A stretch of 57,007 nucleotides of DNA from Pseudomonadota bacterium. Lineage in GTDB: Bacteria; Bdellovibrionota; FAC87; UBA2466. Each line of letters starts with the position of its first letter. Positions within the stretch are counted from its first letter, which is position 1. Both the position numbers and the translations under genes were made by a program. Location: positions 1 through 57,007 of the forward strand of contig JAYSWN010000144.1 of assembly GCA_043718025.1 (NCBI GenBank), given 5' to 3'. This document shows positions 14,989-19,819 of the stretch, piece by piece. Below the pieces are notes generated by a model. The model ran no database searches, was not told the DNA's origin, and saw nothing but the letters and a program-made list of their open reading frames with translations.

Positions 14989-16569
14989 ATGTCGTATTCA
15001 ACGCAGCTGCCCTTATCGGCTAAAAAAATTGCCCGTTGCCGCTCGATTGCCAGCTCAATCGGGGACGTGGTGGCCGATCTCATCCACCAAAACTCCACCG
15101 TCGGGACTGAACGCGCGGTATTGCGCTTGTTGGGCTTCAACGGCGCGCTTGAGCGAAATGGCCTGCTTTACCCCGTCAGCAACTTCATTTTAGACCAGCT
15201 TGAGGCCGCCGGCCGTCTCAATGACGGTGCCCTTTATTGGGTGGCCAATGCATTGCTGGTCCATAAGTTTGAGACCACCCGTTTGGAACACGCCATTTTG
15301 AATGGTGAAGTTGATTTAGGAAAAGTGGAGGAGCTTCCCCGAAAAAAAGTGGAAGCCATGGTCACTCGCCTGGCCAAAGAGTCTTACGCGCGGTTAATGC
15401 GTTACCGCAAGTCGCGAGAGGCAATTCGTAAAAAACAGGGTGATCCGCTTCTCGAAAAACGACCGCTCAAATACGTCATTGTCGCTACGGGCAATATTTT
15501 CGAAGACGTGATCCAAGCGCGCAGTGCCGCTCAAGATGGCGCCGACATTATTGCCGTAATTCGTAGCACCGCCCAGTCGTTGTTAGATTACGTGCCGCAG
15601 GGAAACACCACCGAAGGGTTCGGCGGCACCTACGCCACTCAAGCGAATTTCGCCTTGATGCGAAAGGCCTTGGATGAGGTGGGGGCGGAGCTGGGACGTT
15701 ACATTCGCCTTACCAATTACTGTTCTGGTTTATGCATGTCCGAGATCGCGGCGTTGGCCGCCATTGAAGGCTTAGATTGCCTCTTAAACGATGCCATGTA
15801 CGGCATTCTTTTTCGCGACATCAATCCTCGCCGCACGTTGATTGATCAGCATTTTTCTCGGTTGATTTGTAGTGTGAGTGGCTTGTGGATCATGACGGGT
15901 GAAGACAACTACATGAAGACTACCGACGCCGTCGAAAGCGGTGATCAGGTCTTGGCCAGCGAGTTTATTAACGAAGCGTATGCCTTAAACGCCGGCATGA
16001 AGAAAAATCAAATGTCGATTGGCCACGCCATGGAGATGGACCCTTTTTACGAAAAAGTGATCTTGATGGAAATTGCGCGAGCGCAGATGACCCGGCAGAT
16101 TTTTCCGGAGGCCCCCCTCAAGTACATGTGCAACACCAAATACAAGACGGGCGATATCTTCTTTAGCCACGCGGTGGACACGGTTTTCAACTTAATCGGC
16201 TCGCTCACCAACCAGGGAACCATTTTATTGGGCATGCCTACCGAGGCCATTCACACTCCTTGGCTGCACGATCGCACGATGAGCATTCGCTGCGCGAATT
16301 ACATCCTCAAGGGTAGCTTAGGGTTGTCGCAAGAGCTGGGCTACCGAAGTGACGGCTTTATTTCGAAGTTTGCCCAGAGCGTATTGGACGATGCCGTTAA
16401 ATTGCTCGAGAAGATCGAAAAAATTGGACTCTTAAAAGCAATTGAGAAACGGACGTTTGCGGGCGTGAGCCGCACCGTTGAGGGTGGAAAGGGCGCGCGG
16501 GGGGTTTTTCCGGTGCGGCGAGGCGCGTACCTAAACCCGTTCTTCAAACTGATGGGGAGCCGTATTTAA
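14989..16569 (+). CDS. kamD: D-lysine/beta-lysine 5,6-aminomutase alpha subunit
   Basis: YVIVATGNIFED, AVIRSTAQSLLDYVP, GFGGTYATQ, NYCSGLCM, GMPTEAIHTP. Confidence 0.95.
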   Translation: MSYSTQLPLSAKKIARCRSIASSIGDVVADLIHQNSTVGTERAVLRLLGFNGALERNGLLYPVSNFILDQLEAAGRLNDGALYWVANALLVHKFETTRLEHAILNGEVDLGKVEELPRKKVEAMVTRLAKESYARLMRYRKSREAIRKKQGDPLLEKRPLKYVIVATGNIFEDVIQARSAAQDGADIIAVIRSTAQSLLDYVPQGNTTEGFGGTYATQANFALMRKALDEVGAELGRYIRLTNYCSGLCMSEIAALAAIEGLDCLLNDAMYGILFRDINPRRTLIDQHFSRLICSVSGLWIMTGEDNYMKTTDAVESGDQVLASEFINEAYALNAGMKKNQMSIGHAMEMDPFYEKVILMEIARAQMTRQIFPEAPLKYMCNTKYKTGDIFFSHAVDTVFNLIGSLTNQGTILLGMPTEAIHTPWLHDRTMSIRCANYILKGSLGLSQELGYRSDGFISKFAQSVLDDAVKLLEKIEKIGLLKAIEKRTFAGVSRTVEGGKGARGVFPVRRGAYLNPFFKLMGSRI

Positions 16570-17342
16570 TGTCAAAAGCTGTTGCCTCACCGGATTTAAA
16601 GAACCTGCGCCCCTACGGCGACACCACCAATGATGGTGCGGTGCAGTTTAGTTTTACCTTGCCGGTTGAACCGGGATCGAAAGCGCGCGAAGCCGCTACC
16701 CAGCTGGTTAGCAAATGGGGCTTCTTCGACATCAAAGTGGCGCACATGTCGGCGGTGGGCGTGGGTTACTCGTTTTTTGTGGTGTTCGCACGCACCGAGC
16801 TTGGCCTGGATTATACCCAGCTGGTGGTGCCTGAAATCTCAACTGAGAAGCGCAGCTACAAAGAGATCGATTCACTTATCGGCAAAGACATTGGCCGCAC
16901 GGTAAAGGTGGTAGGAGCCTGCACTGGCTTCGATGCGCACACGGTTGGACTCGACGCCATTTTGAACATGAAGGGTTTTGACGGCGACATTGGTCTAGAG
17001 CGCTACAAGAATTTTAAATGCGTGAACATGGGCAGTCAGGTACCCACCGACGAGCTCATTGACCGGGCGGTAAAAGAGAAAGCCGACGTGATTTTACTTT
17101 CCAAAATCGTGACCCAAAAAGACATTCACATCACCGACATGACGGAATTGCAGAATAAGCTAAAGGCGCGGGGGTTGACCGAAAAATTTATTTTAGTCGC
17201 GGGTGGACCGCGCATCACTCACACCATGGCGCTAGAAATGGGTTTTGACGCCGGTTTCACCATCGGAACAAGACCTAGTGACGTGGCCAATTTTATATAC
17301 GAGACTCTTCGGGATCGGTTGAAACGTGGCAAAAAAAAATAA
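16569..17342 (+). CDS. kamE: Lysine 5,6-aminomutase beta subunit (B12-binding)
   Basis: RPYGDT..DG.VQ.SFTLP dimerisation domain, DAHTVG (DxHxxG), PLP lysine in LNMKG, GGPRI. Confidence 0.95.
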   Translation: MSKAVASPDLKNLRPYGDTTNDGAVQFSFTLPVEPGSKAREAATQLVSKWGFFDIKVAHMSAVGVGYSFFVVFARTELGLDYTQLVVPEISTEKRSYKEIDSLIGKDIGRTVKVVGACTGFDAHTVGLDAILNMKGFDGDIGLERYKNFKCVNMGSQVPTDELIDRAVKEKADVILLSKIVTQKDIHITDMTELQNKLKARGLTEKFILVAGGPRITHTMALEMGFDAGFTIGTRPSDVANFIYETLRDRLKRGKKK

Positions 17343-18213
17343 AAGCGAAAAAATGAAACCGGCGAAAACGGCCGTTACCGGCGTCACTCAAGTGGTGGGC
17401 CGACAGAGCGAGCTTAACCTAATGCAGCAGACGTTGCGGTTGGGCCGCAACCTTTTAATTGAGGGGCCGGTTGGGGTTGGCAAAACATTTTTAGTTTTAG
17501 AGGTGTTGAAAGAGCTTGGCCTAGAGCACGAGCGTGTAGACGGCGATACCCGCTACACCGAACAAAAGCTGACGGGCTGGTTTGACCCCCCGATGGTTCT
17601 GCAAAAGGGGTACTCTGAAGATACCTTTGTTGCCGGCCCTTTGATTACCGCCATGGAAAATGGTTCGGTTCTGTTTATCAATGAACTGAACCGTCTACCC
17701 GAAGCGGTGCAAAATATATTGCTGCCCGCCATGGACGAGCGCCGTGTGGTGATTCCTAAAATTGGTTCGATAACCGCCAAACCTGGTTTTGTGGTGGTGG
17801 CGACCCAGAACCCGAGAGAGTTTACGGCAACCCACGCTCTGTCGGAAGCCCTGCTCGATCGTTTTGAGATGCTTTGGCTCGATTACCAGAGCCACGACGA
17901 AGAGCTTGATATCTTGCGCGGGGCTCAACCTCAATGGAAGGGCAAGGTAACGCTCGGACGAATTTTAGAAGTGGTACGAAGCACCCGCAATCACCAAGCG
18001 CTAAAGCGCGGTGCCAGCATTCGTGCGGGCTTGTCGCTGGCGGATTTAGTGGCGGGAGGCATGTCGTTTAAAGACGCGGCTTTGATGGCGTTGCCCAGCC
18101 GCATTGAGCTTTTGTCGTCAGAAGACAACCCACGCGACATCATTCTTGAGCTACTTGAGGCCGGTGAACTGCCGCGTTTCGAAGAAAAAAAAAAGACTCG
18201 TCCAGGCCGGTAG
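17326..18213 (+). CDS. MoxR-family AAA+ ATPase (start GTG 17326 or ATG 17353)
   Basis: Walker A GPVGVGKT, Walker B region LFINELNR, ATQNP, LSEALLDRF, GASIRA. Confidence 0.9.
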   Translation: MAKKNKSEKMKPAKTAVTGVTQVVGRQSELNLMQQTLRLGRNLLIEGPVGVGKTFLVLEVLKELGLEHERVDGDTRYTEQKLTGWFDPPMVLQKGYSEDTFVAGPLITAMENGSVLFINELNRLPEAVQNILLPAMDERRVVIPKIGSITAKPGFVVVATQNPREFTATHALSEALLDRFEMLWLDYQSHDEELDILRGAQPQWKGKVTLGRILEVVRSTRNHQALKRGASIRAGLSLADLVAGGMSFKDAALMALPSRIELLSSEDNPRDIILELLEAGELPRFEEKKKTRPGR

Positions 18214-18269
18214 TTAAAAAAGACTCGCCGATCGCCGATACGTTTTTTCCTCCCGAACTGGCGTCGCAG

Positions 18270-19085
18270 ATGGAAATGGAGCAGGTGACCGCCAAACAGG
18301 TATCGGGCACTTCCGAGAATTTGCGGGAGCTCTATTTCAAACGCCTACATCAGACCGATCGTGATCCGGATTTAGACCGGCGGTTGGTGGCGGCGGTTTT
18401 AGAGCAGGCCCGGCGGGTGATTGCGCACCCTTCCAGGCCGCAACGGCATCAATTTTTACCCTTCCACAAAATGCCGCTCGCCGATTTGGCGATTGAAGAG
18501 ACTCTAGAAGAGGCTTTTGACTTAAGCGATCCCGAAAGTCTGCTGGTGGAGCATCAGGAGACGAAACCATTTTCACTGGTGGCAATGCTCGACACCAGTT
18601 CGTCGATGTCAGGAGAAAAGCACCTTTTGGCGAGCATTGCCGTAGCGGTGATGCTGTTGCGAATTCCTTCTAAGGACATTGGGGTGGTAACCTTTTCGTC
18701 GACCGCGAAGTCGGTCAAAAAGCTGCAGGTAAATGAAGACCCGGCAAGTGTAGTGCTGCGTTTTTTGAAATCCGCTCCTAAAGGGTTCACCAACATTCAC
18801 ATTGGCCTTAAAGAGGCGCTGGGGCAGTACGAGGCACGCGGCACTCAGCGCCGGCGTTTGGGAATTTTGGCGTCGGACGGGCGCAGTACCGAAGGCCGTG
18901 ACCCAGTTGAGCTGGCGCGGGAGTTTGATTTTTTAGCGGTCATTCATCTACAAGGGCCGGGAAGTCACCGCGATTCCTCGATCGCCATGGCCCAAGCCGG
19001 GCACGGTATTTTTTTGGAAGTAGAAAAGTTCGAAGAGTTGCCGGGACGCATCTATGATGCACTGCGCTTAGTGTCCCGGTTTTAG
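18270..19085 (+). CDS. von Willebrand factor A (VWA) domain protein; frame is open from 18168
   Basis: MIDAS motifs DTSSSMS, GFTNI and SDG; CoxE/chelatase-D-like layout. Confidence 0.88.
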   Translation: MEMEQVTAKQVSGTSENLRELYFKRLHQTDRDPDLDRRLVAAVLEQARRVIAHPSRPQRHQFLPFHKMPLADLAIEETLEEAFDLSDPESLLVEHQETKPFSLVAMLDTSSSMSGEKHLLASIAVAVMLLRIPSKDIGVVTFSSTAKSVKKLQVNEDPASVVLRFLKSAPKGFTNIHIGLKEALGQYEARGTQRRRLGILASDGRSTEGRDPVELAREFDFLAVIHLQGPGSHRDSSIAMAQAGHGIFLEVEKFEELPGRIYDALRLVSRF

Positions 19086-19819
19086 TCAGTCTTTTGCTGC
19101 TTGGTCAATTTATCAAATTGGCAATTTGGCCGAATGAGGATCGTGGGCACGCTGCGGATTGGGGTGAGGGTGCCCCAGTGATCTCGTGAGGCTTCGTTGA
19201 TTCTTTTCTTTAAGGCTTTTAAAAACTCGGGCGAAGCTTGAAACGGCTCGCTCAACGTGGTTTCGCCCTTGGCATTTTTTTTTGCCGACACCCAAACTTC
19301 GTCGCCACTCACCCGAATTTTGTAATCGAAACCAGGCATCGAAAAAAACGGCACCGCTTCGGCCAATTCCGTCATCGATGGCGTGGGGTTGCGATACACT
19401 AGGCTCAGAAACCGAAACAAATTGTGTTCGGTCATTTCTGCATCAATCACTTCCGAATGGCCAAAGGCTGAGAAGAATACGGCTTGAAGGGCTTGCCCAG
19501 CTCCTCGCCACTTTGGATCGACGCGAGAGCTAATGCCTCGCCAGTTTTCTACGTGAACCCCCGACGAATCACGAGTGAATGAAAGAAGACCCTGGTCCGG
19601 ATTTTTGAAAGGGGTAACGACCACTAATCTTTCCAGGCCGAGCGGGGGGCGCTCGTGGCGAATCACAAATTGGTTCTCTCCTACTAAAACCATCCACTGC
19701 TCGCCTGCATGTTGGTCTATGACAATCGGTTCAGATCGCAAGCCTATCGCTAAGCTGAGCGCAAATAAGCAGAGGGCTTTGCGAATTAGTTTAGGACTCA
19801 AGCGTCTAGAATAGCGCAT
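19082..19819 (-). CDS. Secreted hypothetical protein, possibly GNAT-like
   Basis: Signal-peptide-like N-terminus; RVDPKWRGAG resembles GNAT motif A; single C-terminal Cys. Confidence 0.55.
   Translation of the reverse strand: MRYSRRLSPKLIRKALCLFALSLAIGLRSEPIVIDQHAGEQWMVLVGENQFVIRHERPPLGLERLVVVTPFKNPDQGLLSFTRDSSGVHVENWRGISSRVDPKWRGAGQALQAVFFSAFGHSEVIDAEMTEHNLFRFLSLVYRNPTPSMTELAEAVPFFSMPGFDYKIRVSGDEVWVSAKKNAKGETTLSEPFQASPEFLKALKKRINEASRDHWGTLTPIRSVPTILIRPNCQFDKLTKQQKTD

Follow-up and report, generated by a model that had tools for sequence, protein, structure and literature searches.

Among described systems, the frameshifted chlD genes come closest to the gene pair considered here. According to the accessible portions of two reports (PMC3711429, PMC9227772), they too combine an AAA ORF, a poly-A site and a -1 shift into a VWA-bearing ORF, giving short and long products, and they also share with the present family natively fused homologues and a series of run lengths (A7, A9 and A11). 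The chlD signals are reported there to be usually accompanied by a 3' stem, whereas the present family has no conserved stem. A similar use of slippage exists in dnaX of Thermus thermophilus and of the Chlorobi type, where an A9 or A10 run leads to an AAA+ ring subunit in a long and a short form, as predicted here, although gene and function are unrelated to the ATPase-VWA pair; a two-ORF arrangement with 10 As is described for dnaX in the accessible part of PMC3711429.

By protein family, the nearest systems are NorQ/NorD and CbbQ/CbbO, each consisting of a MoxR AAA+ hexamer and one VWA adaptor; a gene position beside a cofactor enzyme, ATPase fold, MIDAS motif and an extended alignment of the VWA half with NorD and Rea1-MIDAS are common to both. 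The CbbQ hexamer binds one CbbO, forming CbbQ6O1 (as given in the accessible part of PMC5437159), and the N-domain of NorD is described, in the accessible part of PMC13036017, to anchor on the C-terminal domain of NorQ, with the linker being stretched as the VWA domain turns. NorD and CbbO are encoded by separate genes and possess their own N-terminal anchoring domain, whereas here the adaptor is a -1 continuation of the ATPase; the client differs as well. In midasin (Rea1), an AAA ring is covalently tethered to one C-terminal VWA/MIDAS domain, the same idea as in the fusion predicted below. Midasin comprises six AAA domains and one VWA domain in a single chain. Its ratio is thereby fixed, whereas in the present system the ratio would follow statistically from slippage. 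To our knowledge, conserved cases of recoding in non-mobile bacterial genes are few. Recoding of an AAA ORF into a VWA ORF at a poly-A run has so far been described only for chelatase genes. A literature search, thin in subscription journals, found no description of recoding in a MoxR/VWA pair or in a kamDE-AAA-VWA operon, and the family was not found in the searchable supplement files of PMC3711429, a GeneTack cluster being possible.

The window analysed here is the whole stretch of 57,007 nucleotides of contig JAYSWN010000144.1 from a Bdellovibrionota genome (GCA_043718025.1). Profile searches give the gene order kamD, kamE, AAA, VWA at the locus, with the following features:

14989 to 16569, + strand: kamD, alpha subunit of lysine 5,6-aminomutase and likely client (NF052384, 692.7 bits against a cut-off of 600; PF09043)
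16569 to 17342, + strand: kamE, B12-binding beta subunit of lysine 5,6-aminomutase and likely client (NF052385, 333.3 bits against a cut-off of 280)
17326 to 18213, + strand: MoxR-type (NorQ/CbbQ-like) AAA+ ORF, encoding the short product (PF07728 AAA_5, 78 bits)
18165 to 18167, + strand: TGA that shuts the -1 frame, upstream bound of the shift window
18185 to 18194, + strand: A10 slip site (A9 to A11 in 128 of 133 split loci)
18189 to 18195, + strand: in-frame A_AAA_AAG heptamer, with A_AAA_AAA one codon upstream
18192 to 18269, + strand: -1-frame linker devoid of ATG, GTG or TTG, with synonymous codon variation among loci and predicted to be disordered
18208 to 18230, + strand: weak, non-conserved hairpin, probably incidental
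18211 to 18213, + strand: TAG terminating the short product, downstream bound of the shift window
18243 to 18260, + strand: conserved FFPPEL in the -1-frame linker (alignment A1)
18270 to 19085, + strand: VWA ORF as a gene caller would call it, probably forming the C-terminal half of the predicted fusion (PF13519, PF05762, PF00092)

The original prediction, made from the letters of the window, was that the AAA ORF ends in an A10 run at which a shift into the -1 frame fuses the ATPase to the VWA protein, and the anatomy of the junction agrees with it. The ORF ends GAA GAA AAA AAA AAG ACT CGT CCA GGC CGG TAG, with the run occupying 18185-18194. In the -1 frame, reading is blocked by the TGA and then free from 18168 into the VWA ORF; this frame passes through KKKDSSRPVVKKDSPIADTFFPPELASQ into the ATG at 18270 and continues to the stop at 19083-19085, the predicted linker peptide being DSPIADTFFPPELASQ. 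ATG 18270 has no recognizable SD-like sequence ahead of it. Counted from GTG 17326, the two products would comprise 295 and 586 amino acids, close to the approximately 295 and 585 proposed earlier, and an alternative start at the in-frame ATG 17353 would give 286 and 577. The 4.14-Mb genome contains 13 A/T runs of length 10 and two of length 12. At least nine As occur within the last 40 nucleotides of only three of its 2062 long ORFs, and 15 of its 237 KKK stretches are encoded with A runs of at least nine; the A10 at the end of the AAA ORF exceeds chance expectation.

That the ATPase is of the MoxR type, as first proposed, is borne out, whereas the chelatase gene chlD turned out to be an analogy and not the family, the closest relatives being NorQ and CbbQ. 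The best sequence matches of the ATPase in the PDB are midasin (the strongest), 2r44, NorQ, CbbQ and CobS, and a Foldseek search with a fused homologue places NorQ/CbbQ at the top with TM scores to the target of 0.82-0.86. The ATPase reaches no named equivalog cut-off (GvpN, 74 of 267). Identity with ChlD/BchD was rejected: the BchD-ChlD model gives 32.8 bits against a cut-off of 499.55, ChlI/BchI is absent among the 60 PDB matches listed for the ATPase, and CobN/ChlH exceeds the cut-off in none of 301 genomes of the phylum, with a control matching in 5 of 14. ChlD belongs to a different AAA+ family. Some of the described genomes with frameshifted chlD likewise lack ChlH/CobN. The present pair would therefore work like frameshifted chlD, yet it is not a member of that family. 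The Walker B motif of the ATPase is LFINE, another difference from NorQ/CbbQ, and its N105-E106 is invariant in 21 of 21 rows of alignment A2 plus fused archaeal proteins. The canonical Walker B motif is hhhhDE, with an Asp where LFINE has Asn; judging from the alignment, this Asn is a signature of the family. The VWA half (297 amino acids) has an intact MIDAS (DTSSS, T, D), with D134, S136, S138, T200 and D229 invariant in alignment A1, and a predicted hairpin region at residues 84-124 that may correspond to the 'finger' ahead of the VWA domain. Its superposition on NorD and Rea1-MIDAS covers 253-305 aligned columns at an rmsd of 7-11 Å, and plain VWA domains rank as high.

Homologous loci came from three sources: 101 relatives, a scan through species genomes (80 of 361 loci retained) and 301 genomes that sample the phylum evenly (60 regions taken). 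A first set of 116 loci consists of 95 split and 18 fused loci and three that end before the VWA ORF; removal of six duplicates and of the three short loci leaves 89 distinct split loci. The second set, from the even phylum sample, comprises 64 loci, i.e., 19 duplicates, one fused locus and 44 new split loci, so that 133 distinct split loci were compared, including that of the window. In the first set, 88 of 89 were scored as -1, and L055 combines a -1 linker with a further break downstream; in the second, 43 of 44 are at -1 and one, L213, at +1. When homologous junctions are aligned, the phase is -1 in 132 of 133 split loci and the run A9 to A11 in 128 (58 A9, 66 A10 and four A11, besides one A8, three A7 and one A6), while the identity of the ATPase to the window protein falls to 44-50% in distant loci. 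Run and phase are thus kept across split loci, instead of a random phase without an A-run. Since these loci are kin and mostly come from MAGs, the counts are not independent trials. The junction between kamE and AAA, which is also Lys-rich, served as control (kamE lies directly upstream of AAA in 62 of the 89 loci): among these 62, the phases -1, +1 and 0 occur 38, 19 and 5 times, and a run of at least nine As once.

The -1 frame opens no more than 3 nucleotides from the first A in 13 of the 89 loci and the 0-frame stop follows no more than 4 nucleotides past the run in 50; therefore, taking the family as a whole, only the run can be the shift site. The A_AAA_AAG heptamer emphasized at the outset is in phase in the window but is not a family invariant, being in frame in 55 of 89 loci. 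The invariants are an in-frame A_AAA_AAA (89/89) and a run length of at least nine; the base after the run is G in 80% of loci, and other flanking bases are variable, save for the nearby stop. As for the proposed 3' stem at 18208-18230, it does fold (-6.1 kcal/mol), beginning 12 nucleotides past the heptamer, and when excised has a z score of -3.2, but in context it is unremarkable (z of -0.44 for 18196-18235, -1.6 for 18199-18248 and 0.04 for 18196-18270) and it is not conserved among the 89 loci, so that it was rejected as a stimulator. Junctions of the 89 loci show no enrichment of 3' structure (mean z -0.07) or of a 5' SD, whose energy is -3.2 versus -3.4 in controls; an SD stimulator was rejected on these grounds.

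With phase, run, linker and fused homologues in support of the proposed fusion by recoding, it is quite likely from comparative data that the two ORFs form one recoded gene giving a short ATPase and an ATPase-linker-VWA fusion. Normal decoding would yield an ATPase of about 290 amino acids, terminating just past the A10 run, and a slip of one base on the run a fusion of about 580; that this slip occurs in vivo and that both products are made is very probable. The site is present in 94 of the 301 sampled genomes of the phylum, where annotation would separate it into two genes and probably misplace the VWA start. This points to recoding from an AAA+ protein into a VWA adaptor having arisen or persisted outside chelatases, perhaps as a means of setting a subunit ratio. 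Among viral contigs, 28 pattern matches were obtained, with no relative among them.

How the slip comes about is a closer matter. If it occurs, RNA-polymerase slippage that adds one A (A10 in the gene, A11 in the mRNA) is slightly favoured as the main route, with ribosomal -1 shifting contributing, and both may act; one inserted A would read out as -1. Nine As is the threshold given for polymerase slippage in the accessible part of PMC5009743, and the runs have at least nine independent of codon phase, only five of 133 being shorter, with A9 and A10 each occurring in all three codon phases among the 89 loci. That the same two products arise chiefly because the ribosome shifts to -1 on the A_AAA_AAA / A_AAA_AAG motifs in tandem, with no stimulator, stands somewhat short of an even chance, a judgement that concerns this step of the mechanism only. 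In its favour, the direction is -1 in 132 of 133 loci, A_AAA_AAA is in frame throughout the 89, a G follows the run in most, and A_AAA_AAG is among the best motifs in E. coli according to the accessible part of PMC4066793. An invariant direction is considered a mark of ribosomal and not of transcriptional shifting (Antonov 2013, PMC3711429, in its accessible part), and both directions, expected among orthologues under transcriptional slippage, are represented by the single +1 locus L213, possibly an error. Moreover, three A7 loci and one A6G locus retain the -1 phase, and such runs below the threshold of nine As weigh against pure polymerase slippage. On the other hand, A8G (a non-A, then AAA AAA AAG) would suffice for the ribosome and A8 is absent among the 132 loci with -1 phase, 34 of 89 loci have no in-frame A_AAA_AAG, and, compared with a signal of the E. 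coli dnaX type, the X_XXY_YYZ heptamer is in frame while conserved SD and 3' structure are absent. The short sites that keep the -1 phase, L175 (genome G277) with A6G, i.e., exactly A_AAA_AAG, and L111, L121 and L124 with A7, are the best natural candidates for purely ribosomal shifting. Together with A9, A10, A11 and fixed fusions they form a natural series that could separate slippage of the polymerase from that of the ribosome and could also address the number of VWA domains that a MoxR ring requires.

Alternatively, the pair might be two ordinary genes, with translation of the VWA protein beginning at a codon of its own, ATG 18270 in the window, and the A-run encoding a lysine tail. An ATG at this place is indeed seen in the window and in two relatives of the same genus, NorD and CbbO are separate proteins, and database entries are mostly of VWA-only length, 130 of the best 150 representatives having no AAA domain or being short. 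The position of ATG 18270 is not conserved, however, and upstream of it the -1 frame holds a conserved FxPPE motif (alignment A1, which excludes row L029). PPE is found within 60 codons in 54 of 89 loci, lying past the AAA stop in every one of them and encoded by all four Pro and both Glu codons, and in 28 of these 54 loci no ATG, GTG or TTG exists upstream of it in the open frame. Any start codon no more than 20 nucleotides from the AAA stop is present in only 12 of 89 loci. It is therefore likely, from the pattern of conservation, that the linker is coding and has no start of its own and that the downstream start, as annotated, is wrong. A fixed phase and lysines encoded by AAA codons throughout are unexpected for two independent genes, and the kamE junction shows neither, which leaves this explanation quite improbable. 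A test of the proposed helper role toward the aminomutase in which each annotated ORF is expressed on its own would probably be made with the wrong protein.

Natively fused homologues do exist, in 18 archaeal loci and among 20 of the best 150 database representatives, which carry both domains. The 18 loci, labelled Thermoplasmata or other archaea, have a single ORF of 601-701 amino acids (stop to stop) with a longest A-run at the junction of 2-4, and their proteins are collinear with the predicted AAA-linker-VWA product. In a quick tree with very distant outgroups they form one branch (99%), and either the fused or the split state may be ancestral. Within the flanks taken, neither a second AAA copy beside the fused archaeal genes nor kamDE near them was found. 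Recurrent neighbours of these loci (L074-L122) are a tandem GNAT acetyltransferase, a D-aminopeptidase, a histidine kinase, a class III aminotransferase and a deoxyhypusine synthase, and suggest no obvious client. Split A9 or A10 forms outside Bdellovibrionota, by label, are L123 (Methanobacteriota archaeon), L126 (Desulfarculaceae), and L092 and L105 (Myxococcota), all with no kamDE within the flanks taken; L123 bears its archaeal label on a short contig of a MAG and may have been mis-binned.

A further alternative is phase variation, in which replication slippage toggles between a fused ON and a split OFF state. DNA polymerase slips on poly-A (PMC3711429, in its accessible part), and rare variants fit such a toggle: L213, L160 and the protein P0001. 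L213 (genome G181) has A8 in +1 phase, one A short of the usual A9 site, and is possibly an assembly under-call, a broken gene or a +1 variant. L160 (G289:C93, - strand; probably P0130) is a natively fused bacterial copy of 658 amino acids, seen on seven contigs, in which A8 is followed at once by a +1-frame TAA; this is the customary A10 layout with two As fewer and the halves fused in frame. L160 is possibly a locked-on or a dnaX-like reversed version, and its genome also has a split A11 copy, L209, beside kamD. P0001 (574 amino acids, one Logan contig) is 50% identical to the -1 frame of the window over 98% of it. Its junction residues, EKKKELK, would fit A11, and instead of a true fusion P0001 may represent a variant with A11 or an error; in its AlphaFold model, a disordered linker (residues 274-311) joins two well-predicted halves. 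Against both phase variation and an error of assembly, practically every genome is in the same split state, which is shared by 132 of the 133 split loci, and a long fused ORF occurs in only one of 97 ATPase matches of the phylum sample. Were the gene almost permanently OFF, its VWA half would not stay conserved; toggling between states seems hardly probable. A single fused gene whose A11 was under-called as A10 (homopolymers being error-prone and the genome fragmented into 234 contigs) is refuted at the family level by the same offset at differing run lengths in more than 130 separately assembled loci and by 0-frame stops right after the run, and a Logan contig, which may stem from the source sample, covers 16900-19100 as one piece with two substitutions and no indel; a contig of this kind does not reveal mixtures of A10 and A11.

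Returning to the recoded gene, it is fairly probable, by analogy with MoxR systems, that short and long chains co-assemble into a hexamer with VWA on a minority of the subunits. The covalent linker would stand in for the N-terminal domain with which NorD/CbbO are anchored; since the VWA half lacks such a domain, a tether from the C-terminus of the ATPase would supply the anchor. Slippage would keep VWA-bearing subunits in the minority. For heterologous chlD reporters, the accessible part of PMC3711429 gives slip efficiencies of 40% for A9 and 63% for A11. As these exceed one in six and fused archaeal genes come with no second AAA copy in the flanks taken, a set ratio may not be essential.

In the operon of the window, there is about an even chance that the ring reactivates lysine 5,6-aminomutase or reloads its cofactor, in place of KamBC. 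KamB/KamC (NF052386, NF052383) has the same proposed role and position beside kamDE, although its proteins are unrelated to the ATPase-VWA pair. A cross-count of two lists for the 301 genomes gives the ATPase in 94 and kamD in 73, with both in 69, the ATPase alone in 25 and kamD alone in four. Each of these four has a KamB-like gene, below the model cut-off, on the kamD contig, whereas none of the 94 ATPase-positive genomes of the sample has a KamB match; because the four belong to one family, this amounts to about one independent contrast. In G000, KamC was matched only below cut-off, and for a match to the MadB model no tracing literature was found. KamDE cannot be the only client, because 25 of 94 ATPase genomes have no kamD and the fused archaeal loci no kamDE nearby, and other clients are likely because genomes with no kamD match retain the A-run. 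Only tentatively, a little short of evens, may the system be regarded as a second AAA+/VWA family, independent of chlD, in which a poly-A slip would build a midasin-like ring, with a tethered VWA on a minority of its subunits, that in Bdellovibrionota would act in place of KamBC as a reactivase of a new class for KamDE, a B12 radical enzyme.

Genomes G073 and G087 each possess two paralogous split copies, one beside kamDE and the other elsewhere, all with A9 or A10 in -1 phase. In the window, kamE has an A9 of its own (17331-17339) that directly precedes its TAA and overlaps the start region of AAA, in +1 phase. Two of the three ORF ends of this genome with at least nine As belong to the kamDE-AAA-VWA operon. 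The A9 of kamE is probably a lysine tail and was rejected as a second slip site, being kept in only one of 62 loci. Downstream of VWA, ORFs of similar size lie on the opposite strand in L033, L034, L037, L038, L047, L051 and L120, and those of L033 encode ETF beta, ETF alpha and an Fe-S/CCG oxidoreductase. In L034 and L047, kdd precedes kamD; ETF and kdd as neighbours fit a context of lysine fermentation in bacteria of a predatory lineage.
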